This document shows, in pieces, positions 881-52,970 of a DNA stretch of 64,000 nucleotides. How positions within the stretch are numbered: position 1 is the first letter of the stretch; every line of letters begins with the position of its first letter. Below the pieces are notes generated by a model. It was not told where the DNA came from and did not search any database. It saw only the letters and a program-made list of their open reading frames with translations. Source of the stretch: a virus. Lineage: Duplodnaviria > Heunggongvirae > Uroviricota > Caudoviricetes. The DNA is taken from positions 1-64,000 of the IMG/VR virus record IMGVR_UViG_3300001528_000192, one strand, 5' to 3'. The position numbers were made by a program, and so were the translations under genes.

Positions 881-1300
881 TTAATCTCCTATTCTTTTAG
901 AAGCTGTAGTTGCGAGTTTGTCACAGTACTCATTCCATTTATCTCCATTATGTCCTTTTACGTGTTGAAACACAATATTCGGACACAACTCAGACACACG
1001 AGTATATTGTTTATCAAACTCTTCCCACAACTTCACGTTTTTACTTCTTTTCCAACCCTTAGTTGCACATCCTATGCAGTACATACTATCAGACACAATG
1101 GTCAAATTATCAATAGGTTTAGTGATACATTTAAGCCCAGTGATAATTGCACCTAATTCCATCTGATTATTAGTAGTATGTTTGTACATCTTTGAGTACC
1201 TAAGGATTAACTTATCATCCTTTAAAAATACTAAACCAAGTCCTCCTTGGTCTAGCTTAGATGAGTATGCGCCATCAGTTATTAATTTATAACTAGACAT
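881..1300 (-). CDS. rnhA: Ribonuclease HI
   Basis: The ORF-track protein carries TDGAYSSK...GGLGLV, ELGAIITGL and VKGHNGDKWNEYCDKLA, the RNase H catalytic signatures. It ends with a TAA stop. Confidence 0.85.
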   Translation of the reverse strand: MSSYKLITDGAYSSKLDQGGLGLVFLKDDKLILRYSKMYKHTTNNQMELGAIITGLKCITKPIDNLTIVSDSMYCIGCATKGWKRSKNVKLWEEFDKQYTRVSELCPNIVFQHVKGHNGDKWNEYCDKLATTASKRIGD

Positions 1301-1751
1301 GTATAAAACGAGCGTTAAGATTATCCTTCTCTATAGGACATTCTCCATATTTTGACTCTATTAGAATTTTTTGTTCATTTAGCATCTCTTCTAAATCTGG
1401 AAGGTCTTCATCCTCATCCTGTACATATAAAGATTGCCAGTTGAAGCCTCCCATATCTTCTAGTATAATTCCTCTGATTTCTTCCCTAATATGGTCTGCA
1501 AAGTCATAATATCCTATCCTTATTTCTCCTGCCTTTCCTTTAACCTTTACATAAATCTCATTAGGATTCACTCTTGTAAAGCAAACTAACTTATCATTGT
1601 AGAGCACTGGTTTTATCTCTGTACTCGGAACAAACAGCTCTGTTAATACAAGGTCATCAAAGGTTGGTTCAATAGATTTAGGAGTTTTGACTATGTATCT
1701 CTCGAAGGGATAATACTCATTAATCACGTTTATAAATTCCTCGTCTGCCAT
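1293..1751 (-). CDS. Hypothetical protein, standard code, terminates with TAG
   Basis: 152-aa ORF in the standard code. Its stop codon is TAG (plus-strand cta at 1293-1295). Its 3' end overlaps the rnhA start by 8 nt. Confidence 0.6.
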   Translation of the reverse strand: MADEEFINVINEYYPFERYIVKTPKSIEPTFDDLVLTELFVPSTEIKPVLYNDKLVCFTRVNPNEIYVKVKGKAGEIRIGYYDFADHIREEIRGIILEDMGGFNWQSLYVQDEDEDLPDLEEMLNEQKILIESKYGECPIEKDNLNARFIHV

Positions 1752-3603: not shown

Positions 3604-4197
3604 TTACTCAGTTTCTTTTTCATAATAGCATACTAAAGTATAAGGATGTAATATACCCTCTTTTTCAAGTTCATAGAATAATTGCTCAAATACTATTATT
3701 CTCACAAATCCTAAATTGAACTCTGTTTTTGAGGGCTGCTTCCAAGTATATGGACACTCTGCGACATAGCATAATTTACCATTAATAACTCGCATTTTTA
3801 AGTAACAATAGTTTAGTAGAATAGCTGCATTTTTCTCTTTTGAGTTAATTGCATAATCTTTATTGCCATTCCAAGCCATCCTACCAAGCTCATTGTCCTT
3901 AAATCTTTGTCTTATCTTTGGAGACAACCATTTATTGTTATGTATAAACAGGGTATCCTGTTTGGTTAACATCCTAAAATTAGCATACCCAGCATCAGCA
4001 CAGTATAGACTTCCAACGGTATATAAACCTGCATGTAATGTCAATATGCTAGCTTTTTCATATAAACTGATTGGAATATTTTTATCTATTTTGTTAACAG
4101 TTTTATACTGATAGCTAACTAAATAAAAAATTCCATTTGCGATACTAATTATCACTATGATAACTAATATCTTTAATAATCTCTTTAACTTTTTCAT
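3604..4197 (-). CDS. Hypothetical protein with an N-terminal membrane anchor
   Basis: 197-aa ORF. The N-terminus KRLLKILVIIVIISIANGIFYLV is a transmembrane helix. The start ATG overlaps the stop of the upstream recoded gene (ATGA). Confidence 0.6.
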   Translation of the reverse strand: MKKLKRLLKILVIIVIISIANGIFYLVSYQYKTVNKIDKNIPISLYEKASILTLHAGLYTVGSLYCADAGYANFRMLTKQDTLFIHNNKWLSPKIRQRFKDNELGRMAWNGNKDYAINSKEKNAAILLNYCYLKMRVINGKLCYVAECPYTWKQPSKTEFNLGFVRIIVFEQLFYELEKEGILHPYTLVCYYEKETE

Positions 4198-5456
4198 TTT
4201 TTATCTTTATTGTTTCTTTGTCTATTATATTCTCTTGCCCACTTATTTAGTTGCTCAGTGGGAATATTAGTAACGTCAGAGTGCCTTTTAGTGTCAACAC
4301 CCCTCAAGGCTGCAACAGTTTCCATTATCGGCTAAATACCCTTGACTCCAGCTTTTTTAGCATCAATGCCTGCCTTTACTGAAGAATAAAGACTGCTATT
4401 TCCCTCTCCATCTCCTAACACTTGAACTACACCCACCTTTCCATTTGGTTTTGTTCCCCACACATTGTTGAATGTGTAGTTATCTCCACGAGAGTAAAAT
4501 CCATCTTTATCAAATCCAGTTCCGGCGGACTATCCGTAAATGTTGTGATACGGAAGGTTTATTGCATTTTTAAACTAATCAGAAACCCTCTCCCAGAATC
4601 CTCTATCATCCTTATTCTGCCCATGGAATGATGATCCAGAATCCCCGTGTTCCCCACCTAAAGCACTATGTGCGGAATCGGTTATACTTCCATCTCCACC
4701 ATTTGCTAAATTATACAAAGAAGCTGCAACAGCTTGTCTCTCAGTTCCCTCCCCTAGATCAAATATAGTATGACCATGAGGGTTTAAAAGTCCTGCTACA
4801 TAATTCCCTGCAACATTGTGAAAGTTGTTGATACGACGAACAAGAGGTGCTTTCTCTCCACCTGACTTATAAAGCCAATCAATAAAGTCTTGATTCTACT
4901 TTACATCATCAAACGTTGTCTTATCAGAGTTATTTCTCCAGTTATTAAAGGCATTATAGGCTCCCTCTGTAGTCCCTGTGATAGCAGGCAACCCTACAAC
5001 ACCAGCTGCAATAGTATAGCCTAACCTCTTCTTACGAATTTTACTCGCCCCCTGTGAAATGAAAGGTTTCATAGCCTCTTGCCTAGCCTTTAGAAGAGCT
5101 AACTTATTTGCATCTCCTCCAAATTCCATAGCACCACTCTTGTAAACCTTAGTAGCTTTATCAGAATTATTCTTCATCCACTCAAGCTCTGCTTTAGAGG
5201 CAGCACTTCTCATGGCTTTAGCATCCCTAATAGCCTATTTCTTTCCTTCAAGATTTGCATCTCTCATTTTCTAAGTAGGTCTCCAACTACTCTTCTGTTG
5301 CAATATTCTCTATTTTGCTAGTTTATTTAACTGCTTTTCAGCAGCTGCTTCACCTGTGAATATTCTTCTCAACCCATTAGATGCCAACTTAGCTTTATTT
5401 GCAAGTTTACTAAACTAGAGAATTGCGCCTCTCTATGCTTTATTAATTTGTGCCAT
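4194..5456 (-). CDS. TAG-recoded gene, hypothetical protein (about 420 aa with TAG read as Gln)
   Basis: ATG at 5456 to TGA at 4194-4196 is exactly 421 codons, with 8 in-frame TAG. Translation with TAG=Q gives a continuous protein (…AMRSAASKAELEWMKNN…SAHSALGGEHGDSGSS…) containing ORF-track fragment 4896..5213. Confidence 0.5.
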
Positions 5457-5466
5457 TTTTTTTTTA

Positions 5467-6381
5467 TCAATATCCAAACTACATCTTTCTCTAATAAATA
5501 GAGAACAAACTGTTCGGGTCATACTATGATGCCCATGTCTAGGCTACCTTATCAAAGGCATCTTGGGTTTGTTGTCCCCATTTTCCATCAGCATTTATAC
5601 CTAATTTCTACTGAAGCTCTTTGACTGCTTCGGGACTATTATATCCAGCTTTAGCGGCACGGTAGTCAAATACACTGTCATAACCACTGTTATGAGCTTC
5701 CATAGTATCATCAGCTGTACCTACAATTTGCCCAGTTTGCTTATTATAGATATAACCATTACTACCTTGAAGATATTGGTCTGGGGTTAGCCAGTTAGAA
5801 CCATCGTAATAATTGGTATTTCCAAACCTGTCAACACCAAATCCCTGTTGCTAGTCTTCATATTGTCCAGTTTCCTAGTTGTATTCCTGCCAACCCTTAT
5901 TAGGATCGTACATATATTGCTGAGGAGTTTCTTCAGCTACGTTAGTAGACGCAGGGCTTCCAGAAAAAGCACTGTAAGTTCCAAGCCCAAGAGCTCCGAG
6001 AGTTCCTACTGTAGATAGTCGCTTGATTCCTTTGTTTCTAACTTGACGGAAAGCATCTTGAGTAACCTACTCCTTAGTTCTAGCAAGATTCTCTCTCGCC
6101 CCAGCAGTTATATTGGCAGCATCACTAAGCCTCTTTTGGTTCCTTGCACTGCCTGGATTCTTCCATTTTGCGGATCTACCTACAAGAGCCTTTTCTGACT
6201 GTCTAGCTGCCTCTAGTCCCTATCTAGCCTCTGCCAATTCTGGAGAGGCTTGCCTTAATTCAATAACCTTCTTATTTCCGCCACCTAATCTAACCATTAG
6301 TTGCTTAGTTTTATTTGGCAGTAATCGGAGTCTCTAGGTTGCTTTATCAACTCCTTTTCTTAATCCTTCTCCTTTTCCCAT
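5467..6381 (-). CDS. TAG-recoded gene; the protein has a C-terminal peptidoglycan-binding-like domain
   Basis: ATG at 6381 to TGA at 5467-5469 is exactly 305 codons, with about 11 in-frame TAG. The C-terminus reads ...VKELQ[Q]KLGINADGKWGQQTQDAFDKV, which resembles a PG_binding_1 domain. Confidence 0.5.
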
Positions 6382-6385
6382 AATA

Positions 6386-7423
6386 TTAATTAGTTGCTAA
6401 GTCCCACATTGTTCCAATGTTTCCAGTGAAACTATTATCCCTAGAACTTAATATGTTAAAATCATTATAACTATCTCCTAAGCTATTTTTAATGTCTGCC
6501 TCCGAAGCTCCCTGCTTCCTAGCCTGCTTTACCTAATTGAATAAAGGCTATAGTTGCTGTTTAGTATTCTTAACATCCTAGTAACCAGTATAAAGACTGG
6601 ATCCTATTTGAGGCATATCATACATTAGCTTAGCATTTAAAGCCCAATTAGCCGGTCTTTCTACTTTACTAAGTACCTTTACACCTTTCCCTACTGTATT
6701 AGCAGCTCTTGCTAACTTTGTAGCCTATAGACCTACCTTTAAGCCTCGTCCTATATTTCCTATGAAAGGAATGGCAAAGACAGCATTCATCGCTGCTTCT
6801 CCCCAATCTCCCCTTCGAGCTGCATTATATGCATCTCCTGCTGCCATAGCATTTCCAACTCCAGGAATAAAATATCCAGCAGTTCCTGCTAGGTCTGAGA
6901 CTGTAGAATTGGCATGATACAATCCAGTTTTATCTCCTAGCCACTGAATTGCCTTACCTCCAATTGATTCAGCTTCATCAGTAGGCTAGGCACTTTGAGA
7001 CTTATTTGGTTGCCACCTTTTCTATGGTTGAGACTATCTAGCCCTTTTCTCATCAGATATATTCAAATAAGTATCCCTGTTATCAAAGGGATTTCTCTAT
7101 ATATAGTTTCCGTATTGATCTCTTCTGGCTCCAGCTGCTTTAGCATTTTCATCAAGTCTAGAGTTAGCCTCACTCCAACTGGCAGTTCTTCCCTCTTTAG
7201 AAGACCTAACGTCATTAAGCCTCCAACGACCATTCTAGTATATATTTCCATTCCTAGTGTTCATAGAGGTTCTATTTGCATAATCTCTACCATATTTACT
7301 AGCTAAATATCTCCAAGCAGCTCCAGTTATAGGACGCCCTTTCTAAGCAATTTTATTGCCATTCACGTCTCGGTAATATCCATCCTTACCGAGCCACAAT
7401 TTACTCATATCAAAGTTTGCCAT
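6386..7423 (-). CDS. TAG-recoded gene, hypothetical Gly/Ala-rich protein
   Basis: ATG at 7423 (MANFDMSKLWLGKDG) to TAA at 6386-6388 is in frame over 346 codons, with several TAG. It contains ORF-track fragment 6725..6922. An A/T-rich tract lies just upstream of the start. Confidence 0.5.
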
Positions 7424-9003: not shown

Positions 9004-9291
9004 TCATTCTAAAATACCATATCCGAAACCTAGTCTAGTGACTAGATACTTACCTAAATCTTTCATTTTCTTACGCAACCTTGACATAGTAGTGTCTACA
9101 GTTCTCAAAGAAACTCTAGAACTCCATACATTGTTGAGAATTTCCTGTCTGGAATGTATCTTGTTCTTATTCTTTATAAGAAATTCAAGGAGATTGAACT
9201 CATTTTTTGTGAGATTAATTTCTTCTCCACCTATAGTGCATACTTTTATGTCTAAGTTGAGTTTCAGTTCTTTAAACACAAGTTCGTTCAT
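9004..9291 (-). CDS. Winged-helix (OmpR/PhoB-type) DNA-binding transcriptional regulator; no receiver domain
   Basis: The protein contains LTKNEFNLLEFLIKNKNKIHSRQEILNNVWSSRVSLRTVDTTMSRLRKKM...LVTRLGFGY, which matches the trans_reg_C pattern. Confidence 0.7.
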   Translation of the reverse strand: MNELVFKELKLNLDIKVCTIGGEEINLTKNEFNLLEFLIKNKNKIHSRQEILNNVWSSRVSLRTVDTTMSRLRKKMKDLGKYLVTRLGFGYGILE

Positions 9292-9691
9292 TATCTTTTT
9301 GCTTAGTTATATCCTCATATTTATGGTAGCGATAGTAACTCCTTTCTCCGCATTTGTTTTTAGATTTGTAGGTGTCTAACTGAGAATCACAGTTTGGACA
9401 TATACATCTAAGGTTAGTTCTAATATTATTAGATGCGTGACCATCTATATGGTCTAGAATAAACACTAGAGGTTTTCCGTTCCACTCAGGCTTTGAACCA
9501 CATATAGCACATACTCCATTTTGTTCTTGAAGTATGTCTTCCTTGAAAGCATGTGGAGAGTAATTAGCCCTCATTATAGATGGATCTCCATCTAGTATTT
9601 TCTGATACCCAATTTTGTGCTGGTATTCTCTCTGACACTTGTTATCACAAAATTTATGCCTGTAGCTACTGCCATTATCCTGATTTAACAA
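9272..9691 (-). CDS. HNH endonuclease (possible N-terminal extension to 9857 through an in-frame TAG)
   Basis: The protein reads CAICG...LDHIDGHASNN...LRCICPNCDS (HNH). The same frame stays open upstream through the TAG at 9773-9775 to the ATG at 9857. That extension encodes MSYEDIGRHYGCSGSNIKKVAARIGIQLP-, which is HTH-like. Confidence 0.7.
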   Translation of the reverse strand: MLNQDNGSSYRHKFCDNKCQREYQHKIGYQKILDGDPSIMRANYSPHAFKEDILQEQNGVCAICGSKPEWNGKPLVFILDHIDGHASNNIRTNLRCICPNCDSQLDTYKSKNKCGERSYYRYHKYEDITKQKDNERTCV

Positions 9692-20308: not shown

Positions 20309-20520
20309 TTAAAACAGAATACATTTTAGAAATTAACCACAATAACTCTACGATAAAGTTGCTGATAGTATTCTTATTCAAACAATATATAAAAAATGGA
20401 CTCAAAACAAAGACGGAATGCAACTAGAAATGTTCAAGATTAAAAGTCTTGTATTATAGTCTGGGCTTGCTGTATGCATTCCTATAACAATCTTCTAAAT
20501 ATACAATATTTAATAGTGGA

Positions 20521-20565
20521 GATGGAGGGATTCGAACCCTCGTCTTACATATTTGCATCAAAACG
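20521..20565 (-). other. tRNA 3'-fragment-like element (T-arm GAGGG TTCGAAT CCCTC plus acceptor-like CATCTCC) with no detectable 5' partner
   Basis: A canonical T-arm is present. No complementary 5' acceptor strand was found within 120 nt. Confidence 0.2.
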
Positions 20566-21015
20566 TACTTACAGCTTAGGTTTTAAAGACTATCCTTGTC
20601 TGTTAGGGCTGACAGGATTGATATTCTGTCAACTTCCACCACTCTGTTCCTAAAGTTTACAGAGAACTTACATGAGGGAAACTTTATACTTAGATTAATA
20701 CTCAACCGCGCTGCTAATATTAGCACTAATAGCTTCCTTACGGATATGATGGGCATTTCTTTATGTTGCCTACCCTTCTACCTTGGAGCACGGACTCTCA
20801 GGCAACCCCTCTAAACTCACACCTTTCTGTTCCTAAGCAAGTGCTGCTCGGCTTATTAGGCAGCAGCCTGATAAGCAGGAGTCATATTGATAACTCTAGC
20901 ATTTATTGTTTCGTTGTCTTTCCAACTGTCTTGCTGTGTTTCTTATCGCCTATGCAATCAAAACCAAAACATCCCCATAATAAGCAGTTTCATGTCATGC
21001 TTGGGACTTTCTCTC

Positions 21016-21569: not shown

Positions 21570-21650
21570 AGGAACCTATTCTTTCGTTAACTGCTGCTCT
21601 AAACCAGCTGAGCTACCTCTAAGAGGATTGGATTCGAACCAATGACTTGC
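21570..21650 (-). other. Scrambled tRNA-like region: a canonical D-arm-like and a T-arm-like segment in the wrong order for a single tRNA
   Basis: The minus-strand sense has a canonical D-arm-like segment (GCTC AGCTGGTTTA GAGC) in the wrong position relative to the T-arm-like segment ATTGG TTCGAAT CCAAT. The palindrome CCTCTTAGAGG lies between them. Confidence 0.2.
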
Positions 21651-21704
21651 GGTTTTGTAAAGAAATTAATTGCTGTTAGATTCCTTGTTAAATATGTCAA
21701 AAAC

Positions 21705-23476: not shown

Positions 23477-23821
23477 TTAAACTTTTAATTTATTAACTCT
23501 GCGCCTAATGTCTAGGCAGTTTTCCATAGTAGTTGTTAGACATCCGAGATGGACAATTCCATTGTCCTTAGTAATTGTAAGATTCTTTTCTGGAATTTCT
23601 CCTTTGTCTTCCCTATTTCTAATTATACGTTCTATTACAGGGAATTTAACAGCTGTGTTCTTACAAAATATTACATCTTTCTCTGGAATGTAAACAACCT
23701 CATTGCCGTTTATTTCACCTACTTTGTGTTTAGGCATACGATTAAACCAACAATAATTAAGATAACGATTAACAAGATTACTGGTCCATAAAATGGAAGT
23801 GTAACCCACCACCAAGACCAA
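23477..23821 (-). CDS. Hypothetical protein
   Basis: 114-aa ORF. Confidence 0.45.
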   Translation of the reverse strand: MVLVVGYTSILWTSNLVNRYLNYCWFNRMPKHKVGEINGNEVVYIPEKDVIFCKNTAVKFPVIERIIRNREDKGEIPEKNLTITKDNGIVHLGCLTTTMENCLDIRRRVNKLKV

Positions 23822-23919
23822 TTAATCACGCCTACTAGCTTTAATACTACAAAGGCAACACCCAATAGTCCAAGAATGCTTGGACCTTTATAAATTACTT
23901 GTTTCTCCATATGGCACAT
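23719..23919 (-). CDS. Small membrane protein (two transmembrane helices)
   Basis: 66 aa, reading ...ILGLLGVAFVVLKLVGVINWSWWWVTLPFYGPVILLIVILIIVGLIV. Confidence 0.35.
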   Translation of the reverse strand: MCHMEKQVIYKGPSILGLLGVAFVVLKLVGVINWSWWWVTLPFYGPVILLIVILIIVGLIVCLNTK

Positions 23920-23928
23920 TTAGAAAGT

Positions 23929-24001
23929 TAGAGCCCTCTGCCGGATTCGAACCGACAACTTCCTGTTTACAAGACAGGCACTCTACCATTAAAGTTAAGA
24001 G
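23929..24001 (-). tRNA. tRNA-Thr (anticodon TGT)
   Basis: The acceptor is GCCCTCT/AGAGGGC. The anticodon arm is CCTGT CTTGTAA ACAGG. Confidence 0.8.
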
Positions 24002-24068
24002 GGCATTTCGGAGGACTCCCAGTCAGTTGAGTCCTCCTACTATTAGTGAAAAGAGTTAACACCTATTC

Positions 24069-26590: not shown

Positions 26591-26751
26591 TGCACAATGT
26601 GTTTAGGTTCAGGGTATATAGTCGTTACACATTTATGTACTTATAGTACAATTTAGCTCGGCGTTATTACCATTTAAGGCTGGCACCTTCACCGAATTAG
26701 CCCTGTTCTACATCAGAAGTTTCCCTCTGTGCACTCACTACCTTTCTGTTT

Positions 26752-27288
26752 CTACTTCTGAAGTTCTCTGTTAAAGAGTGACAATTGGGGACAAAGTATC
26801 TGTAAATTCTCTATCCTATTATCAGTTGTATCACCATTTATGTGATGTAACTCACATACAATAGGTTTACCCATCCACTCAGAAATACCACAGCATTCAC
26901 ATTTATTTTCCTTAAGGTTTAACCTGTATACTATCGCTTTTACATTAGCACTACTCAGCGAACTATGTTCGCAAAGGTTAGATATATACTTACCTCTGTA
27001 GACTGGATTATTGGAACTAGTATTCCATCTTTGCCCAGTAAAATGTGAATAATCTACTCCAAACTCGTCCATCTTCTTTCTTAGCGTTTTGGGATTAGAA
27101 CCTTCTGGTTTTAGTCCTAAACGGCGACAAAGCTCTGCAAAAGAATAGCAATCTTTCACATTCTTCTCTAATAATTCTTTTGTATATTTTATTCTTACCA
27201 TAGTAAGGCAAATATACTCAGAGTCATTTAGTCTACCAAAAAGAATAAACTTGTTTAGAATAAGCGATTGAGAATCTTTTATTCTCAA
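26752..27288 (-). CDS. HNH homing-endonuclease-like protein
   Basis: CECCG...LHHINGDTTDNRIENLQILCP forms the HNH core. It has an N-terminal extension. Confidence 0.7.
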   Translation of the reverse strand: MRIKDSQSLILNKFILFGRLNDSEYICLTMVRIKYTKELLEKNVKDCYSFAELCRRLGLKPEGSNPKTLRKKMDEFGVDYSHFTGQRWNTSSNNPVYRGKYISNLCEHSSLSSANVKAIVYRLNLKENKCECCGISEWMGKPIVCELHHINGDTTDNRIENLQILCPQLSLFNRELQK

Positions 27289-27344
27289 GATTTGTTTTGT
27301 CGAAGTCCGCCGGGTCTACCATTCCCCCATGAAGCCATCCACCT

Positions 27345-27548: not shown

Positions 27549-27618
27549 AATTTATTAGTTTTCAAAATAGTCCTGTACGATTTGAGCATTGTTAAGAGGC
27601 TTGACAGGAAATTAGTTA

Positions 27619-34353: not shown

Positions 34354-34647
34354 AGAATCTTACCTTCCTAGCAAGGATTTATTAATGTCTAGGTAAAATT
34401 ACAGTCTTTGACTGCCAGTCAGAATACTTTTCAGGAGAGCTACTATTATTCACTCTATAAGTATACGAAACCATAAACACTTGTGGGAGTAATACGAATT
34501 GAACGTATTTTGGTCCTATTCGATAACACACTAGTTGTTTCTTTCTTTACCTTATCACCTGTCCTACACATTCGCGACTGTATAGGTAACTCCCAAGTTC
34601 ACCTTTTTATTTAATTGAGAGGTGTAACTCAACTCTTTTAGGAATGC

Positions 34648-34950
34648 CTACTTCTTAGCCATCTTTTCAAAAGCCTCTTTGAAAAGTCTATCAACATCTT
34701 CCTTGGTAGGATTCTTCATCTCTTTCACTTTCTTCTCGATTTCTGGAAGTTTAGAGACCATTTTCTTCATTTGCATGTGGATTGTAACATGCCCTGCCAA
34801 TACTGATGCGATAACTGCAGCTTTGATCTCATCAGGAAGTTCCTTAACGTTCTTCTCAAAGCTATCATGATCACAGCTAAATCCCATTGCCACAGTTGAG
34901 ATTGCCTTATCTACAATCTCGAAACTGTACATTTTGTTTCCTTTTTCCAT
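34648..34950 (-). CDS. Hypothetical protein
   Basis: 100-aa ORF with a T-run immediately upstream of the start on the plus strand. Confidence 0.5.
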   Translation of the reverse strand: MEKGNKMYSFEIVDKAISTVAMGFSCDHDSFEKNVKELPDEIKAAVIASVLAGHVTIHMQMKKMVSKLPEIEKKVKEMKNPTKEDVDRLFKEAFEKMAKK

Positions 34951-35724: not shown

Positions 35725-35798
35725 CTATCTGGGAGTCGAACCCAGGTGACTTAGCCATAGGCACAGTATCCTAACCGTTAGATGAATAGTCTCAAAGG
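35725..35798 (-). other. tRNA-like element with good acceptor and T-arm but no canonical anticodon arm
   Basis: The sense sequence is AGACTAT...GATACTGTGCCTATGGCTAAGTCACC-TGGG TTCGACT CCCA-ATAGTCT. No 5-bp stem with a 7-nt loop could be found in the anticodon region. Confidence 0.25.
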
Positions 35799-39449: not shown

Positions 39450-39471
39450 GGGGGGGGGGATAAAAAAAAAA
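39450..39471. repeat. Homopolymer pair G10 then A10
   Basis: The sequence gag gggggggggg a t aaaaaaaaaa lies between the AT-rich plus-strand gene and the following minus-strand gene. Confidence 0.7.
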
Positions 39472-39482
39472 GCTAACCCAGA

Positions 39483-39746
39483 TTACTCTGGATCAGCTTC
39501 AAATGATTCAATTGTTTCCTTAAAGTCTTTAGTTTGTTCTGGATTGCCAGAATGATCTCTAACAGATAAGATATTAAGTGCATCTTCAAAATTAATATAG
39601 AATTGTTCATCTGTTAGCTTTAGTCTCTCTGCCTCATCAGCAGCTAAGGTAGCCATGTGTAATGCAGCTTGACACATAGTCCAAACTCGATTCTTTTCAT
39701 TTGGAAATCTACCTGATTTAATCAATTTCATTAGTTCACTTCTCAT
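39483..39746 (-). CDS. Hypothetical protein
   Basis: 87-aa ORF. Confidence 0.45.
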   Translation of the reverse strand: MRSELMKLIKSGRFPNEKNRVWTMCQAALHMATLAADEAERLKLTDEQFYINFEDALNILSVRDHSGNPEQTKDFKETIESFEADPE

Positions 39747-39763
39747 AGTACATATTTAATTAG

Positions 39764-39835
39764 TCGCCCCACTCAGACTCGAACTGAGACGTGCGGTTTT
39801 AGAGACCGCTGTGCTAACCATTACACCATAGAGCA
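39764..39835 (-). tRNA. Amber suppressor tRNA, anticodon CTA (reads UAG); tRNA-Gln-like body
   Basis: The sense sequence is TGCTCTA TG GTGT AATGGTTA GCAC A GCGGT CTCTAAA ACCGC ACGT CTCAG TTCGAGT CTGAG TGGGGCG A. The 5-bp anticodon stem pairs perfectly and the 7-nt loop CU-CUA-AA puts CUA at positions 34-36. The D-arm TGGTGTAATGGT is almost identical to that of tRNA-Gln(TTG) at 29860-29930. Confidence 0.8.
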
Positions 39836-40394: not shown

Positions 40395-41275
40395 TTAAGA
40401 TTTAAACTTACCTCCATTTTTAAGAGTAAATCCCTAACTAGTCCAACTTGGGACAGTCTAAAGGTTGAAATCTAATAGTTTGGGTTTCCTAAAGAAAGTT
40501 AATCCAACGTTACCAGGAGATACATCATCAACTACTATACTTCCATTGGTATATGCTCTATATTGTACGTTAGGATCGTTAACTTTTCTAAAGCCACTCT
40601 TCTACATAGCCTTATCTAACTTATCTACATATTTTGGAAAAGTTTTCTCACTGAGAACTTTCACCTTTTTCTAAATGAAAGTTGGAAATCTTCTAGTCCC
40701 ATCCTTCACATAGCCTACAAACTTTAGAGGGAGAGAGTTTGGAACTGCATTTCTCTTTAACATTTCACCGCTGCCAACCTAAGTTATTTTTCCCACAGTA
40801 GTAGGAGAGTTTCTTATTACAAGGGCTTCAGAACCCTATCCTATTTTATAAGGGGTTAAAGTAGATAACTTACCAACTGTAGCCCGCCTAGTAACAGCCG
40901 GAAGAACACCTTTAAAGGAACTTACAGGTCCTGCAGTTATAAGAGAAGTTCCTATGTTCTTTACATTATCTTTAGCATAATTAAAATTGGACTATATCTT
41001 CTACTAGTCTTCTTCCTTAGAAGGGTCATAATGAGTTTGGCGTCCAAATATTCCATATCCAAAGAAATTGTTATTGTAGAAGTTCTACATATTCTAGTAA
41101 TACTTAGCTTTATCTGCATCATAGATTACTGCTTGATTCTTTCTAGCAGCCTCCTACAATTTTCTCTATTTAATTCTATCTTGCTATTCTTTAGTAAGTT
41201 GGAATGCCATTGGTTGACCTCTAACAACTCTTGTATTATCCTATACTGCAATCCCACCTCTCTAAAACTTAATCA
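40395..41275 (-). CDS. TAG-recoded gene, hypothetical protein (about 293 aa, about 17 in-frame TAG)
   Basis: ATG at 41275 (MIKF[Q]RGGIAV[Q]DNTRVV...) runs to TAA at 40395-40397. The translation is coherent only when TAG is read through. Its start overlaps the stop of the upstream small membrane protein gene. Confidence 0.5.
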
Positions 41276-41490
41276 TGCATTTTACCTTTCCAAATTCCAG
41301 TTACTGAATCTATACCTAATAATAAGCATACTGCATATATAAAAGGTTCTATCATTAGAGGGGCCTGAATAGAAGATATAGTACAATAGACTAATACAAA
41401 GATGATAATAAGGAATCCGATTACCCCACAAACTCTCTTACTACTAATACCAGAGTGTGAGGTAATCATCAGTCTAAGAAAATCCTTCAT
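41269..41490 (-). CDS. Small membrane protein (holin-like, 2-3 transmembrane helices), no TAG
   Basis: 73 aa, reading ...VCGVIGFLIIIFVLVYCTISSIQAPLMIEPFIYAVCLLLGIDSV. Confidence 0.45.
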   Translation of the reverse strand: MKDFLRLMITSHSGISSKRVCGVIGFLIIIFVLVYCTISSIQAPLMIEPFIYAVCLLLGIDSVTGIWKGKMHD

Positions 41491-41522
41491 AAAATTAAAA
41501 GTATAATTATTACCTAGAGTAG

Positions 41523-41714
41523 CTATCCTATAGCTCCACCTATCATAGTAGCTGCTATGTCTAGCCAGTCAAACTTACCTCCATACTGTTTATCTTTAAA
41601 TTCCATTCCAAATGCACATCCTAATACAGCTAGTATAGTAAATACTAACCCAATAGGAATTGCATATAAAAGATGTTTCGGACGATTACTTTCTTTCAAC
41701 CACATATTATGCAA
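41523..41714 (-). CDS. Small membrane protein (holin-like), no TAG
   Basis: The protein reads ...LLYAIPIGLVFTILAVLGCAFGMEF...WLDIAATMIGGAIG, which gives two transmembrane helices. Confidence 0.45.
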   Translation of the reverse strand: MHNMWLKESNRPKHLLYAIPIGLVFTILAVLGCAFGMEFKDKQYGGKFDWLDIAATMIGGAIG

Positions 41715-42819
41715 AATTTAATTTATTTCCGAAGAACCAATTAGCCTCCAATTGTCTTCTCTTTATAAGTCCTTTCTATATCTTACCATTACCTCTTGCT
41801 GTAATACCTGCCCTAATCCACTTATTATAAATAGCTTGAGGATTATTCCAGTTCTGAACAATAAATCTTCCAAACTCTCCATTTGGGCTAGCCCAATTAC
41901 CAGAGGCTGATATAGAAGATAATGCATCTATTTTATCCTAAGTTACATTAGGTAATCCTGCTAGCACCTGTTTCCATTCTTCAGCCTTCTTATTATAGAA
42001 GGCATTAAAGATGTTGTCCCATCTTTCTTTAGAAAACCTAGTACCTGCCTTTATAGGTGGAGCCCCCGGTTTATCAAATTCTCTAGTCATGCCATATGCA
42101 CCAGTAGCAAAAGATTCTCCAAACTATGTATTCACTTTAGCAGTTTGGGATCCCCCTTCCATCCTTTTAATTTGGGAAGCCATCTGCTAAGATATACCAT
42201 TAGCGAATGTACTAATGCCGTTGGTAACCCCTCCCAAGATTCGTCTAATACTTTTGATTTCTAAGTTAGGAAGGGGTCTTTCTACTATTCCTAACTTCTT
42301 TCCAGCAGCATCTATAATATATATCTATCCGCTCTCTATTCTACTTATAAGTCCTATGTGCTATCCACTAGGACTATTCTTACTTCCAAACCAGATTACA
42401 TCTCCAGGCTTAGCCTATTGAAGACTAATTTCCTAACCTATCTTACCCTACTGAGCAGCAGTCCTAGGTAGATTAATTCCTACACTATTAAAGACATACT
42501 TTATAAGACCACTACAATCAAACCCAGAACTTGGACTAGAACCTCCCCAACTATATTTACCTCCTAAGAATTGTCTCGCTTGGTTAATTACCTACTAAGC
42601 CATAGAAGAGCTATTCTCAGATTTAGAAGGAGAATAACTGAAGGTAGGTTCTTGTATATCCTACTAAGGAGTATCTAGGAAACTCCAATCTATGCCGGAA
42701 TCTTCTACGTCCTAAGTAGGCTATTGCATTAATTGTATTTCCTGATAATTCTACTATACATCAGGGGTAATTATGTCTGGAGGAGATACAGATTCAAATG
42801 TTGTAAATAATTCAGCCAT
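41706..42819 (-). CDS. TAG-recoded NlpC/P60-family cell-wall peptidase (endolysin-like)
   Basis: With TAG=Q the protein reads ...QFLGGKYSWGGSSPSSGFDCSGLIKYVFNSVGINLPRTAA[Q][Q]GKIG...PGDVIWFG...[Q]HIGLI, the NlpC/P60 Cys/His core. The two consecutive TAG codons sit where the family has Gln-Gln. The end coordinate is approximate because my manual frame count is off by one somewhere. Confidence 0.55.
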
Positions 42820-42821
42820 TA

Positions 42822-43646
42822 TTAAAATTTATATAATCCATTTATAATATCACTAAATAATATATGAGGAATTTCGGGATTTTCCTAATCAAGAATAGAT
42901 TTATAGGAAGTCGCTAATTTCTTTCCATACGGATTCTCATATGAATCATTTATTAAGATGTGACTAATATTTCCTTCTGGCTATCTCATGTCCCTAACAA
43001 TAATAAATGGTCCATCAGAATAAAAACCACCAGGTGCAGCAGTACTAGTTTTATCCCCGATTAAACTGCTAGAGTAAAAAGGTCTGGTAGTATCGTATCC
43101 ATGCTTATTCATCATCCTAGCAACAGCTAAGGCTTCTGAATCTCCCTATTTAGACATGCCGTGTCCTACATAGTGTAATGGAACTCTCTACCTTTCAAGA
43201 GCCTGCTTCAGAAATTCTCCCTGCATAAACCTATCATCTTTATTTATACCTCTTCTAAAATCTAGCATATTTTTAGGAGATATTTTAGTTCGGTCAATAA
43301 ATCCCTATAATACTTTCAAATACTCCCCCTTTGGCACTAATTTAATTGCTTTTATAACTCCTCCTAGCTGGTGTTTCCAAGTTCTGGCATTAGCAGCAAA
43401 TGTAGCTCTTTTCCTAATCTTAGGATCAGAACTATTTTTTCCCCTCTAAATGCAGACATCAGTTACATTTCCCCCACAGTACTCTGTAAATTTACCTCTA
43501 TTCTATTTTTTAATATGTATCTTATGTCCTTTCTTGTAAAGCTCAATTGGATCTGAATAATTCTCTAACTTTAAAGGGAGATTAAGCTAAGAAGTATCCT
43601 TGAAAAACTAAGAAAACTCTGTTAATTGATTCTAGGTATATTTCAT
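42822..43646 (-). CDS. TAG-recoded gene, alpha/beta-hydrolase-like protein
   Basis: ATG at 43646 (MKYT[Q]NQLTEFS...) to TAA at 42822-42824 is exactly 275 codons. It contains HYVGHGMSK[Q]GDSEALAVA, a G-H-x-x-S nucleophile-elbow-like motif, and about 14 TAG. Confidence 0.45.
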
Positions 43647-43814
43647 ATTAGATTTTGTTAAAAGTAACACATACTTTATTTGAGTATTCAAATTTAATAT
43701 TTATATTTGTATAATTGAAATGAATATAACTCATAAGTTAAATAGAAAATTCCACGTATAAATATATTTGTACAAACTCAAGGACTAACAGATTAACTAT
43801 ATAATATCTAACAA
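43647..43814. promoter_or_regulatory. AT-rich divergent intergenic region (probable divergent promoters for the minus-strand lysis cassette and the plus-strand late module)
   Basis: A 168-bp gap of roughly 80% A+T lies between the divergently oriented genes starting at 43646 (minus) and 43815 (plus). Confidence 0.3.
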
Positions 43815-44087: not shown

Positions 44088-44957
44088 ATGAAAATTGATA
44101 AGCAGAATGGAACAGTTGCGTTCAATGACCAAGAGCATATCTATTGGAATGTAAATGATAATAAAAGATATGTCTCAGTTACTACTCTAATTCACAGATA
44201 TACTCAAGAATTTGATAAGGAATTTTGGTCTTCTTATAAGGCTTTGGAAAAATTACTTCCAAAGAAGTCGTGGGAAATAGAAAAGAAGTCTCTATTAAAT
44301 ACTAAGAAGTTCAATAAGGAATTGTTAAGTTTATATGATATAGACGAGAATGATTTCAATGCAGTTCAGCAAGGCATCTTAGATGCTTGGGATGAGGAGA
44401 ACAGGAAATCATGTGAAAGAGGAACTAAGATACACTCAGAGATAGAAAACTCCTTTTACGACCACCCAACAGATATTTCTTTAAAGAAGTTTGGTTTGGG
44501 AGGAAAATTTGAGTGTAAGAAAGACTACTCGGAATTAGATTTAGAGCATGGAGTGTATCCAGAGTATTTGATATATAGGGAGTCAGACGATGGGATCTTA
44601 CGAATAGCAGGACAGGTGGATCTTATAATTAAGTCAGGAAATGAAATAACAATTGTAGACCACAAGACGAATAAGAAAATTGATCAAAAGTCTGGATTCA
44701 ATACAATTACTAAATCAAATGCTAAGATGAAGTATCCATTGAATAATCTAATGGATTGTAATTTTTATCATTACACTTTACAACTCTCCACTTATGCTTG
44801 GATGCTTCAAAAGATAAATCCAAACTTTATAATTAAAGATTTGATTTTAAATCACTATGACCATAATGGAAATAATACCTTATATCATTGTGAATATCTA
44901 AAGCATGATGTAGAGAAAATGTTATATCATTATAAGAAGAGTCTCATTTTGGAATAG
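44088..44957 (+). CDS. PD-(D/E)XK exonuclease-like protein (YqaJ/Cas4-like fold), standard code
   Basis: 289 aa. GQVDLIIKSGNEITIVDHKT supplies a D...D-x-K motif. It has no in-frame TAG. Confidence 0.55.
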   Translation: MKIDKQNGTVAFNDQEHIYWNVNDNKRYVSVTTLIHRYTQEFDKEFWSSYKALEKLLPKKSWEIEKKSLLNTKKFNKELLSLYDIDENDFNAVQQGILDAWDEENRKSCERGTKIHSEIENSFYDHPTDISLKKFGLGGKFECKKDYSELDLEHGVYPEYLIYRESDDGILRIAGQVDLIIKSGNEITIVDHKTNKKIDQKSGFNTITKSNAKMKYPLNNLMDCNFYHYTLQLSTYAWMLQKINPNFIIKDLILNHYDHNGNNTLYHCEYLKHDVEKMLYHYKKSLILE

Positions 44958-45158
44958 AAAAGAAATGCAAGAAAAAGAATAGAATATTAATCATTGTTAA
45001 GGGCATATTGAATCCCAATCTTGGATTAAATGTCAACACTATATACTAAAACAGTCTATTCTTTTTCTTTTTATTTTTAGATTATGAATGTATTTGATAT
45101 TATCAATGGTCATGCAAAAGAAGTCCTTAACCTTAACTAGGACTTAAGTAGTAATAGA

Positions 45159-47698: not shown

Positions 47699-48193
47699 TT
47701 GGAACCAAATAGAAATAAATGCAAAGAAGACCCAAGTGGATTAATGGGTCTTCGTGCATTTAGAGAGTTCACTTATATATGGCTTGCCATATGTTGGAAG
47801 TCTGTGTATAGTGAATATGATGAACAGGTTAGGCACCAAGAGTCCCTAAAGGATGCAAACTTAACAGAAGAGGAATTTAATAATCCAGAATTTAGAGCAG
47901 CATGTAGGAAGTTTAGGCAGATATAGGAGTCTAATCTTTCCATTAAAATGCTACATGCTGCACAGGAAACTGTTAACAAGTTTATAGAATACTTTAATTC
48001 AGTAGATCCTTTAGAGAGAGATGAGTAGACTGGAAAACCAGTATATAAAGTTAAAGATATTATGGCTGAACTAAGTTCTTTAGGAAAGGTTCATGACGAA
48101 CTTGTTGACTTGGAGAGTAGAGTTAAGAAGGAGTTAACTGAACAATCTTCCGTTCGAGGAGGGGCTATAGATGGATATCAACCTAACTTTTAA
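47699..48193 (+). CDS. TAG-recoded hypothetical protein (possible small terminase position)
   Basis: MEPNRNKCKEDPSG... continues through two TAG to TAA at 48191-48193. It lies immediately upstream of the large terminase gene. Confidence 0.4.
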
Positions 48194-50463
48194 TGGTTAT
48201 GGAAGAAGTTAAAAGGAAAAGAGGACGACCTAAAAAGGTTAAACTCCCAGAGGAAATAAAGACTTTGGTACAAGAAGTTAAGCAAGAATAGAAACCAGAC
48301 TTAATTAAAGTAGAGGAATCTGTTCCAGAACCAGAAAAATCTTCAGAGTGGGACGTTCCAAAGGGGGAATATATAAAATTCTTCGATAAAAGGCTTTCTT
48401 ATGAGCTAACAGGCTATAAACCAATTACTGAAACTTAGGGGTTGGATTTTGATCCAAGTTGGTTCACCGTTGCAAGGGATACCTACATAAGAACTGGAAA
48501 GTATTGTAGCTATAGAATATACAGTAAACCTTATAATGATTTCTGGCATGAAGAATACCGTAGATGTCGAGAAGGGTATACTGTAAATGGATATACTTTA
48601 ACTGGTCCAAACTATTATTACCTCAACTACTATCAACTTCCTAATATTGATGTTGAAATAGCAGGTAGTGGACGTAGTTAGATATTTCCTAAGTTCTTGG
48701 TATTTCAGTATGAGTTCTTTCACTACTTTGAGATATGTAGAAGGGAGAAAAAGGATGTATGTTTAATGAAGTCCCGTGGTATTGGATTTAGTGAAATAAA
48801 TGCTGCCATTTGTGCATGCATTTACAATTGCTTCAGAAATAGTAAGTGTATGATTACCACGAGTTTATCTAACTATTTGGAGAAATCTCTTGATAAGGTA
48901 TGGAATGCACTTAGTTTCGCAAATGAACATACTTAGGGAGGACTTGCTAAACTTCGCCAGGCTAAGGACACATAGTTCTTAAAAAGAGCATCTACTTTAG
49001 TAAAGGATTCAAATGGTATAACATCTGAAACTGGATGGATGTCTTAGATTGAAGGAGTAGTAGCTGAGACTGATGCTAAGATAAGAGGCGACCGTATTGA
49101 TTTACTAGTATATGAAGAGGCTGGTTCTAATTCAGTCTTAAGAAAATCATACATTAAGGGAAAAGCCCTTATATATATTGGAGGTACTAAGTTTGGAATT
49201 AGACTTGCGGGAGGTACTGGTGGAGATAAAGGTGCAGCTTTATAGGGACTTAGAGATATATACTATGACCCAAATGGATTTGACGTCCTTCCGTTTTATC
49301 ATAATTATACAGAGGGTGGAGAATGGGTTTATACTGGATACTTTATTCCATCATACATAGGTGCTATTACAGAGTACGGTACTGATATTAACGGAGTAAG
49401 ACGACAATTACTCGATAAAAGAGGCTATTGCTTATGGAAGAATTATAAGGAGTAGCTAGATTTGGATAGGGCTAACCTTTCCTCTAATCCTAGAGCATTA
49501 ATTGATCACTCTGCTGAGTATTGTTACACAGCAGAAGAAGCGTTTGCTTTGGAAGGTGATAACAAATTCAATAAAGTAAATATTGCTGAATAGCTTACAA
49601 ATATACGTGCATTGAAGAAATGTCCCCCTATAGAAAGAGGTTATATTGAATATAAATTCAAGGATGGAGCCCATGTTTAGTAGAATATAGATGGCTTCAA
49701 GTGGATTCCTAATTAGAGTAGTAAACTCTAGATATTAGAACACCCAATATGGACTTTGCCCCCAGTTGAGGACGAGAACGGAAAAGTAACTTGGAGACCT
49801 CCTACTGAAAAAGTTAGAAATTTATATGTAATAGGAATAGATGGTATTGATATAGGCGCAGCCCAAACTTCTGAAGCTACAAAGGATCCATCAGACTTTT
49901 GCCTTGTTGTTTACAAGAGAGCATATGGAATGGAGGAACCAAAATTTGTAGCACTTTATAAGGATAGACCTAATGATGTTAGGGAATGCTATAAGATAGC
50001 TATTAAACTAGCATAGTATTATAATGCTGTTATAAATATAGAGGCAACCAGATAGAGTATAATCCCATATGCGAGAGAGAGAAAGCTTCTTAATCTCTTT
50101 ATGAAGAGACCTAGGGCTACTCTTGCAGACTCTGCTAGGAATACTAATAAACAGTATGGAACTCCAGCAACTCCAGCAATTATAGATCATCAAACAGATT
50201 TAATAGCTGATTATATAAATGACTATTGTCACCTTATATGGTTTGATGAAATGCTTGATGAGTTCAATAGGTATACTGATGAGAATAAGAAGAAATTTGA
50301 TATTGTTGCAGCAACAGCAATGGCTTTGTTAGCAGATGAGGAATTGCAAGGAACAGTACCTAAAGTTGTAGAGGAAGTCAAGGATACCTGGCAAGATATA
50401 GGATTTTACACAGATGAATATGGAAGAAGGCGCTATGGAACACTCCCAAAACACGCTTCTTAG
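48193..50463 (+). CDS. terL: TAG-recoded terminase large subunit
   Basis: Five ORF-track fragments (48442.., 48697.., 49756.., 50101.., all with start%3==1) fuse with the ATG at 48193 when TAG is read through, about 13 TAG in total. Motifs are KSRGIGFSE (a deviant Walker A typical of terminases), DLLVYEEAG (Walker B) and VIGIDGIDIGA...DPSDFCLVVY (the RNase-H-like nuclease domain). Confidence 0.7.
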
Positions 50464-50494
50464 ATACGATTTAATAATAATTTTGGATAGTTAT

Positions 50495-50803
50495 ATGACG
50501 ACTTAGGACCTAGAACAAGTAATACAAGACTATATTCTGGATATTTATCATAAGAAATATATAGGTAGAATGGTCATAGAGAAACTAAATCCAGTAGGAT
50601 ACTGCATTAAGCTAGGGATGGATCATGATCACTAGCCAATAGTTATTTACGCAGAACTAGAGGATGATAAGTTTCTTAAATTCCTCAGGCAAGAACTTAA
50701 GGATAGGCGTTTCAACCTAGTATACTATGGTAAACTATAGTTAACTTACCCATATGATTGTAATCCAATAAATACAGCATGTAGTTGTCATGACAAAGGA
50801 TGA
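50495..50803 (+). CDS. Small TAG-recoded hypothetical protein
   Basis: MTT[Q]DLEQVIQDYILDIYHKKYIGRMVIEKLNPVGYCIKLGMDHDH[Q]PIVIY...CSCHDKG ends with TGA at 50801. Confidence 0.3.
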
Positions 50804-52970
50804 ATTAATAGAGAAAACGGACAAGGCAATATCTGAACTAGTCTACCCTAAATATGATTTATAGAAAGCATATAACTACTATAATGGTGTAAGAGATTCA
50901 GACTAGTTCAGATACCTAGAGGAAGTGTATGGAGCAAATGCTCCAACTACATTACATTTCACCCCTTTAATAAAGAAACATATTGATGCCCTTATAGGAG
51001 AGTACTTAGGAACTCCTATAATTCCAAAAATATTTTGTAAGGACAGTGAAACAATAACCAATATAGATAGAGAGAAGCAATTAAAGATCGCTTCTGAACT
51101 CCATGAGTATTTGAAGAATCATCTTAGAAATTCTGTTCTCAACTTTATAGATGGAAAGAATATCAATGATGGTCTTATTGAGTAGCAACTGAAGAGAATA
51201 GTGGAAGATATAAATAATACATTTGTATCAGAATATGAGATTGCTGCATAGAACGTAATAGAATATATTATGCAATCTAGAGATACTGATATCATTACAG
51301 TATTAAGAGATCTTCTTCTAGATCTTTTAATTACTGGATATGCCTTTTATAGAGTTCTACCTACAGTAGAAAATAATAGCATTAGAATCTAGGCTCTAAG
51401 CCCATTAAATACTTTCATTGATAGAAACTTTGAATCTCCATATATTAAAAACTCTTATAGAGTTGTTGTAAGAAGCTGGATGACTAAAAACCAAATCCTA
51501 AATGAATATGGTAAAGAAATGAAAGCATCTGATAGAAAACTTTTAGATGAAAAGTGGGATTCTGTTTACGAAAATGCTATGTACTACGTCAGAATGGGGG
51601 AAACCAATGGTATTCCAAATACAGACGGTGTTCAAGCTGGAGTAGAAGTTACTCCTGGCTATCCTGATAGTAAGTCCGGACTAACTCATGAACTTATCCC
51701 CGTTTACGAAGTAGAATGGTTAGAAACTGACAAAGATTTCATAATGCAGAGATATAGAACAGTTAGAATTGGAGAACAAATCTATATACTTAGGGGGAAG
51801 GATGAAAAAGTTATGAGAACTAAATCTAATCCTTCTTACTGCAGTCTCTCTGTTAATGGTATATATTTTTTGAATAGAGGAACGAAACCTTATTCAATGG
51901 TTCTAGCCTGTGCTCACCTCCAAGATTAGTATGATCTTCTGAACTTTTATAGAGACAACCTTATTGCTAATAGTGGTACAGTAGGGGACTGGATTGATTT
52001 AACATTAATTCCTGCTGAGCTAGGTGTAAATCTTCCAGAACGACTTATAAAGTGGTAGGCTCTGAAGAAACAAGGGCTAGGAGTTCTTGATTCCTCTTAG
52101 GAGGGACGATTGGCTTCTGGGCAAGCTCCATTAAATACTATTTTTAATGGTTTTGATAATACTGTTAAAATGTAGGCTGTTCAAGCTATATAGGTAGCAA
52201 TAGATGCTATAGAGCAAACTACCTCCTCTATTACTGGAGTCTTTAGAGAAAGGCTTAATGGTATTGAGTAGAGAGATGCTGTGACTAATGTTAAAATTGG
52301 ATAGAACAACTCATTTATTATAACTAAATAGTATTATCACTAGATGGACTTAATAGTAAATGAGATGCTATTAGACTGTTTAAATCTTGCCAAAGTTGTA
52401 TTCAAGAATGGATTAACTGGAACTATTATACTAGGAGATAAGTATCAAAGAGTATTTACTGCTCTTCCTGAATATTTTACAATAACTGATCATGATATTA
52501 GGATTGTTACTAGTACTGATATTGTGAAGGATTTGGAACAAATAAAGAATATTATTCCTGAATTTGTTAAATCTGGCGGTCTCCCTCCCGACATTATTAT
52601 TGAAGCCATAACTAGCAAGAGCTTACCAGATCTTAAGTACAAGGTAAGAAAAGCTATGCAAATCTAGAAGGATGAAAATAATTAGATGTAGCAACTAAAT
52701 TAGCAAAATTAGTAGCTCTAGTAGTAGCTCTAGGAAATGTAGAAACAGTTACAGGAGGCTCAGAAGAAAGTAGAATCTCTTAATCAAACTAAACTACAGC
52801 TTGAACAAAAGCAGCTTGAATAGAATTATAAGATTGAAATGTATAAGGCTAATACAGATAGGTCTTATAAGGAGGCTACTGTTGAGGAGTAGAAAAGAAG
52901 AACTTAGGTTGAAATAGCGCAGTTAACAGATGGGAATCCTTACAATGATAAAATTAGACAAATTGATTAA
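50790..52970 (+). CDS. TAG-recoded large virion protein, portal-like by position, with a TAG-dense Gln-rich C-terminal tail
   Basis: Fragments 50925.., 51480.. and 52344.. (all %3==0) join from the ATG at 50790 to TAA at 52968-52970, about 726 aa. The assignment as portal rests only on its position after terL and its size. Confidence 0.4.

Follow-up and report, generated by a model that had tools for sequence, protein, structure and literature searches.

The TAG codon at positions 1293..1295 of the window is most probably the true stop of a real gene, placed in a doubly stopped junction that overlaps the next gene, rnhA. It would reflect a TAA-to-TAG change that is neutral with respect to the genetic code in use, and it is silent on when TAG changes its meaning. 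The window is the whole stretch of DNA that was analyzed, 64 kb in length. Minus-strand genes occupy ~1 to 43,700 and plus-strand genes ~43,800 to 64,000; the left end of the window is a phage NAMPT gene.

The window is a portion of a large crAss-like phage genome from the gut. Both its terminase and its portal match crAss-type PHROGs, and the terminase shares 28% identity with those of Crassvirales and 44–47% with those of unclassified gut phage contigs. Contigs related to the window are 157–228 kb long, and one contig of 174 kb carries a 100% identical match to a 193-aa protein of the window that is described below. Like the large (Zeta-type) crAss-like phages, this phage has a genome of ~165–175 kb and many tRNAs; the window contains 23 tRNA genes, one of them with the anticodon CUA. 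It fits the large-genome, tRNA-rich and often recoded crAss-like lineages (Yutin 2021, PMC7886860; Zeta crAss paper, PMC12386605).

Recoding of TAG to glutamine (code 15) is known from crAss-like and Lak phages, in which early genes are compatible with the standard code, while late and lysis genes are recoded (Ivanova 2014; Yutin 2021, PMC7886860; Borges 2021/22, 10.1101/2021.08.26.457843; Peters 2022, PMC9523058). In the temporal model, translation begins with the standard-code genes, and the structural and lysis genes that are recoded follow only once the suppressor machinery appears (Borges 2021/22, 10.1101/2021.08.26.457843; Yutin 2021, PMC7886860; Peters 2022, PMC9523058). The window shares with code-15 phages a tRNA(CUA), a large group of genes that lack in-frame TAG, many in-frame TAG codons in others (terminase, portal, tail and cell-wall-hydrolase genes), and the pairing of TAG with CAG or CAA in relatives. 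Nothing essential differs from these phages; in the window, recoded genes are interspersed among the standard-code genes of one strand, and three recoded genes are situated directly upstream of the suppressor tRNA.

The junction between the 152-aa gene and rnhA

The junction is composed of the following features.

1293..1751, minus strand: conserved 152-aa gene with an ATG start, ending in ...His-Val-TAG
1293..1295 (plus-strand cta), minus strand: TAG at a conserved stop position, with TAA at the exact codon in orthologues
1287..1289, minus strand: in-frame backup TAA, two codons past the TAG; read in the frame of rnhA, it falls within Tyr4-Lys5 (TAT AAA)
881..1300, minus strand: rnhA, an RNase H of 139 aa (PHROG 531, E=2.8e-38; PF00075 in relatives)

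The ORF at 1293..1751 is a real conserved gene, since it has homologues, a conserved place upstream of rnhA and a confident structural model. For the 152-aa protein, 407 homologues were found at E<=1e-3, nearly all of them 135–175 aa long, and in related contigs these homologues likewise lie upstream of rnhA. The AlphaFold2 model, which used a 68-sequence alignment, has a mean pLDDT of 91.5. Pfam, PHROG and fold searches with the protein returned no family and no structural neighbor, and no exact match to the window's own 152-aa protein is on record.

On the minus strand, the junction reads CAT GTC TAG TTA TAA. The ATG of rnhA (1300..1298) is embedded in the His-Val codons (CAT GTC) of the upstream gene, and the two genes overlap by 8 nt. 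The initial annotation had placed the end of the upstream gene at a TAG 8 nt inside rnhA, which the ORF and the sequence bear out. It had also proposed that decoding TAG as glutamine would extend the protein into rnhA. This is formally true, but the extension consists of two residues only: read-through at 1293 adds Gln-Leu and then meets the TAA at 1289..1287, giving 154 instead of 152 aa. Because the TAA two codons past the TAG is conserved, the product is nearly identical under both codes. The C-terminus ...HV is present in ~70 of the 120 homologues listed for this protein, and four database homologues are annotated with an HVQL end.

The layout resembles known overlapping stop/start junctions (ATGA, TAATG), in that the AUG of rnhA precedes the upstream gene's stop by 2 nt (TAG) or 8 nt (TAA), and it is conserved across the subfamily along with the ...HV protein ends. 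Such junctions couple the translation of adjacent genes; in the window, the layout is known from sequence and the coupling is putative. Translation initiation of the Bacteroidota type is poorly captured by Shine-Dalgarno rules.

The same junction was compared in relatives, given here with their protein identity to the window.

Window: CATGTC TAG TTA TAA
L003–L012 clade, ~70%: CATGTC TAG TTA TAA
L013, 89%: CATGTC TAA (C/T)TA TAA
L014, 82%: CATGTC TAA (C/T)TA TAA
L015–L017, 65%: CATGTC TAA (C/T)TA TAA
L001 / L084, ~60%: CATGTC TAA (C/T)TA TAA
L085: CATGTC TAA (C/T)TA TAA

None of the orthologous junctions compared has CAG or CAA at the flagged codon, and four independent lineages carry TAA there; the ratio of TAG to TAA at this position rests on ~6 lineages. 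Three of the genomes with TAA at the flagged codon (L001, L013 and L015) are themselves TAG-recoded, with genes that hold 10–15 in-frame TAG codons. The second TAA, after TTA or CTA, is kept in every orthologous junction examined. Further copies of the junction were sought by a single-protein search of IMG/VR, which yielded nothing, and by an alignment search, which yielded two loci. The DNA pattern of the junction had one match in IMG/VR and one in the JGI metagenomes, both of them with TAA. By these comparisons, the flagged codon is a conserved stop position and not a glutamine position, and its TAG is one transition away from the common TAA form.

An ancestral TAA may thus have become TAG by a single transition. 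Judging from protein identity, the TAG form would have arisen at least twice, in the lineage of the window and in the L003 clade. The change would be tolerated, as its outcome barely depends on the code. When little suppressor is present, the host RF1 would end the protein at ...His-Val; when suppressor is abundant, the ribosome would add Gln-Leu and then terminate on the TAA. In both cases termination would take place 2–8 nt past the rnhA AUG, and any termination-reinitiation coupling to rnhA would be preserved.

TAG as terminator and as sense codon

The use of stop codons was surveyed in ~46 full-length genes without in-frame TAG, which cover most of 881–41490. The terminators of the 46 standard-code minus-strand genes in the window are 29 TAA, 11 TGA and 6 TAG. 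The statement that the other early genes checked use TAA or TGA is therefore incomplete. TAG ends ~13% of the standard-code genes, and early genes do not systematically avoid it: among the terminators, TAG (6) is not significantly less frequent than TGA (11). Off-frame TAG, at 2.0% in standard-code genes vs 3.1% in recoded genes, is not depleted. At least five TAG terminators are located at stop positions validated by orthologues.

1293..1751, minus strand: 152-aa gene, TAG TTA TAA, 1 codon to the next TAA or TGA; TAA at the same codon in orthologues
12585..13172, minus strand: 193-aa gene (TAG at 12591), GCA TAG CTA TAA, 1 codon to the next stop; fixed C-terminal position, 995 homologues
23710..23919, minus strand: 66-aa gene (TAG at 23719), TAG GTG AAA TAA, 2 codons to the next stop; orthologues end in TAA
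34648..34950, minus strand: 100-aa gene, TAG ... TGA, 30 codons to the next stop; a TAG two codons earlier is the stop in L086 and L087
35453..35692, minus strand: 79-aa gene, TAG, next TAA 13 codons on; L086 has TGA TAA at the same codon

The stops at 34648 and 35453 are, on these alignments, true stops. Downstream of the 34648 stop, a 2-nt indel shifts the frame relative to relatives, while the nucleotides are ~90% conserved; because the frame is shifted despite this conservation, the region past the TAG is noncoding in the frame of the gene. Read-through would add ~31 aa to the 34648 protein and ~14 aa to the 35453 protein. These two genes are better evidence for TAG as a stop, and better test cases, than the flagged gene. 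They also rule out the proposition that every TAG stop has an immediate backup.

The ~100 nt past the 34648 gene (34540–34647, minus strand), ~90% conserved with L086 despite the frame-shifting indel, suggest a conserved non-coding element, e.g., a promoter or an RNA.

The rare TAG stops of Zeta crAss-like phages have been described as lying "in all cases" shortly before another stop (PMC12386605, 2025). The window is similar in that three of its TAG stops are backed by TAA, with TAG NNN TAA at 1293 and 12591 and TAG NNN NNN TAA at 23719; it is dissimilar in that two others (34648 and 35453) have no close backup. Among TAA- and TGA-terminated controls from orthologue-validated families, ~16% have another stop within 1 codon and 26–32% have one within 3 codons. 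For three of the five validated TAG stops, the next stop comes within 2 codons (p ~0.06 under an assumed background of 20% within 2 codons). Close backup stops may therefore be enriched after TAG, a suggestive but marginal result.

The 193-aa gene has its TAG at 12593..12591 and its TAA at 12587..12585, and no downstream gene overlaps it. Its family shows the following forms.

Window, L088 and L089: TAG CTA TAA
L003, L004, L006 and L025: TAG TCA TAA
L090: TAG TTA TAG ... TGA six codons past the first stop
L024: TAA CTA TTC, next stop 45 codons on
L023: TAA TTT AAA, next stop 26 codons on
L022: TAA TGA

A TAA at the second codon past the stop is found only where the first stop is TAG, and the middle codon is CTA or TCA. 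Because the TAA accompanies the TAG and no gene overlaps, these sequences suggest that the backup TAA of this family is under selection. The flagged junction differs: TAG and backup do not co-vary there, and relatives with TAA as their first stop carry the second TAA as well. Unlike a tandem stop of the Zeta type, this second TAA is fixed by the overlapping codons of rnhA. The backup TAA of the flagged gene predates the TAG and is constrained by rnhA coding, and it is best described as a permissive background, not a demonstrated adaptation.

As a possible general account, which we put forward tentatively, standard-code genes would be exposed to suppression by a leaky or gradual switch, and a TAG terminator would persist mainly where a TAA or TGA follows a few codons on. 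The 193-aa family would then represent a co-evolving backup, and 34648 and 35453 would be genes translated only before the suppressor appears, or genes for proteins that tolerate a tail.

In the same genome, TAG is also read as a sense codon in the genes listed here.

48193–50553, plus strand: terminase large subunit, 17 in-frame TAG; full-length PHROG match only with read-through
50790–52970, plus strand: portal, 28 in-frame TAG; full-length PHROG match only with read-through
40395..43691, minus strand: three TAG-recoded genes with 10–17 TAG each; NlpC/P60 cell-wall hydrolase domain in the middle gene
4194..7423, minus strand: three TAG-recoded genes with 10–11 TAG each, inside the standard-code block; one with a weak peptidoglycan-binding motif
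9272–9916, minus strand: HNH endonuclease, 3 in-frame TAG
44088..44990, plus strand: PD-(D/E)XK exonuclease, 300 aa (PHROG 298), sense TAG at 44955–44957

The claim that late genes read TAG through is thus upheld by the terminase and the portal. Tail-fiber-like genes, when ORFs are read with TAA and TGA as the only stops, likewise contain many in-frame TAG codons. In the genes at 4194–7423, the codons opposite TAG in relatives are CAG in 21 and CAA in 8 cases, which together make up 29 of the 66 non-TAG, non-gap codons, far above any other. An alignment with distant Crassvirales terminases (28–44% identity) was rejected as a test of TAG as glutamine: it was too divergent, with Gln in 2–3 of the 17 columns, and closer relatives were used.

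The standard-code ORF of the exonuclease stops at the TAG at 44955–44957. The KRxxRKRIEY tail beyond it is conserved in 18 IMG/VR relatives (65–99% identity), and the 13 of them without TAG encode E, Q, K, A, G or M at this codon. Because the tail past the TAG is conserved, this TAG is, by comparison with the relatives, a sense codon, and the true gene spans 44088–44990. The conserved tail rules out the proposition that every C-terminal TAG is a stop.

Two side observations concern the same gene. IMG/VR relatives of the exonuclease (L044–L058) have TGA at a position where the exonuclease of the window has Trp (EFDSAF* vs EFDKEFW); they look like members of the same broad lineage with TGA recoded to Trp. 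In L001 / L029 (IMGVR_UViG_3300045988_073177), the exonuclease is 98% identical to that of the window, whereas the homologue of the 152-aa protein is only ~60% identical; this mosaicism implies different histories for the late and the replication-side regions.

The early block named in the initial annotation is not in the standard code throughout: the heavily recoded genes at 4194–7423 and 40395–43691 and the HNH gene at 9272–9916 are all on the same strand. Recoding tracks gene type (virion, cell-wall and homing-endonuclease genes), and not a simple early/late block.

Both HNH homing-endonuclease genes (9272–9916 and 26713–27342, minus strand) sit within the standard-code block. The N-terminal region of the first is included only if its three in-frame TAG codons are read through. 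The second (26752..27288 within 26713–27342) ends at a TAG with a TGA 12 codons on and is outside the orthologue-validated set; with its TAG inside the CPxCH motif, after CP, it looks degraded. Also in the standard-code part, a conserved cassette at 13179–17146 (minus strand) encodes an amidoligase, a GATase, a phiEco32-like COOH-NH2 ligase and a C26 peptidase, and adjoins a Band_7/SPFH gene.

The suppressor tRNA and other RNA elements

The suppressor tRNA and the hairpin that follows it are located as follows.

39763..39835, minus strand: suppressor tRNA with anticodon CUA (ARAGORN; Rfam 55 bits)
39469..39500, minus strand: strong intrinsic-terminator-like hairpin with a 14-bp stem and a T run, which follows the suppressor tRNA and an 87-aa ORF

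The suppressor tRNA is Gln-like in alignment, with U1, A73 and a D-arm as in the phage tRNA-Gln(UUG). It lies apart from the main tRNA array and directly downstream, on the same strand, of the three heavily recoded genes at 40395..43691. With these genes directly upstream and the terminator-like hairpin downstream, the suppressor tRNA may be co-transcribed with them. A sigma-70 promoter scan around it gave hits at the level of shuffled sequence, with a model that is unsuited to Bacteroidota and phage RNA polymerases. No release-factor gene was found within the window.

Regarding the origin of the tRNA, its anticodon arm (AGCGGTCTCTAAAACCGCA) nearly matches the one in the phage tRNA-Trp(CCA) at 2130–2202 on the minus strand (AGCGGTCTCCAAAATCGCA); its acceptor and D-arm look Gln-like. 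In L014, positions 13517–14638 encode a 373-aa release-factor-like protein with PCRF and RF-1 domains, near NAMPT and Macro-domain genes.

Several other RNA elements were observed alongside. At 20514–20976 on the minus strand, Rfam gives a full-length match to tmRNA (65 bits, gathering score 47, E=4e-25), left uncalled by ARAGORN, with well-conserved acceptor and T arms. Its tag frame, as read, runs GCU AGA ... GCU GCU GCC UAA UAA (ARVINMTPAYQAAA) and closes with a pair of ochre codons. In a cell in which read-through of stops makes non-stop complexes, a phage tmRNA could be of consequence. At 27571–27608 (minus strand), a match to the Rfam abiF RNA (50 bits, gathering score 37) adjoins an HNH endonuclease gene. 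A tRNA at 23932–24004 (minus strand), found by Rfam (63 bits) and missed by ARAGORN, looks like a tRNA-Thr(UGU), judging from its anticodon loop CTTGTAA. There are tRNA-like fragments at 21627–21655 and 35727–35744, the latter identical to the 3′ part of tRNA-His.

The motif TTTGCTGTAAGTnnTCTT has 8 copies in the window against 1.7 expected, at 2298, 8963, 20358, 21842, 33226, 33317, 33444 and 36223 (plus-strand coordinates). The copies are intergenic and, in minus-strand orientation, precede tRNA genes and some protein genes, and the motif may be a promoter or a processing signal. None of the 8 copies is upstream of the suppressor tRNA.

Readings of the flagged TAG and their bearing on the code

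The initial annotation took the flagged TAG as evidence of a temporal code switch, in which TAG is a stop early and glutamine late, and the flagged gene needs TAG as its stop. Such a switch is the current published hypothesis, and part of the proposal stands: TAG occupies validated stops in at least five standard-code genes, two of which (34648 and 35453) have no nearby TAA or TGA, and it is validated as a sense codon in other genes. The position of the suppressor tRNA, off the main array and between three recoded genes and a strong terminator, would fit delayed co-expression with recoded genes. The flagged gene, however, contributes nothing to this case: read-through costs it two residues, so it does not need TAG as a stop. 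Moreover, timing is not readable from sequence, genes of both codes are intermingled on a single strand without an early/late split, and the promoter scans remained at noise level. As an account of the flagged TAG, the temporal switch is therefore unlikely. Constant partial suppression with tolerated short extensions explains the flagged site equally well, and sequence alone cannot separate it from a temporal switch.

We consider it less likely still that the flagged TAG is a sense codon and that the gene functions through a 154-aa protein ending in ...HVQL, which is how gene callers set to code 15 annotate it. The four homologues annotated with HVQL agree with this, the genome has an active-looking suppressor, and, as the exonuclease demonstrates, a lone TAG close to the C-terminus can be sense; yet four independent lineages have TAA, and not CAA or CAG, at the flagged codon, and the Leu codon and the TAA that follow the TAG are accounted for by rnhA coding in the other frame. 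That the ORF is an annotation artefact, either no gene at all or a gene with a miscalled end, has nothing in its favor beyond the missing Pfam and PHROG matches; it is already refuted by the 407 homologues, their conserved length and synteny upstream of rnhA, and the confident structure prediction, and its probability is negligible.

A true stop in a doubly stopped junction accordingly remains the best account of the flagged TAG. As the comparisons between relatives indicate, one genome uses TAG both ways, and a uniform glutamine meaning does not describe all of its genes. Both the temporal switch and backed-up TAG stops are already published, and the novelty of these observations is low.

Proof at the sequence level that two codes operate at different times in one genome would matter. 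The flagged site gives no such proof because it is code-neutral; it therefore holds no information on when TAG changes meaning, and among the TAG-terminated genes the flagged one tells the least. In this lineage, 34648, 35453 and the exonuclease at 44088–44990 are better genes for a proteomics test. A stop TAG can be told from a sense TAG by whether orthologues have TAA or TGA at the same codon or a conserved tail downstream of it. For annotators, the lesson is one of caution, as neither code 11 nor code 15 gives the right ends for all genes in such genomes.
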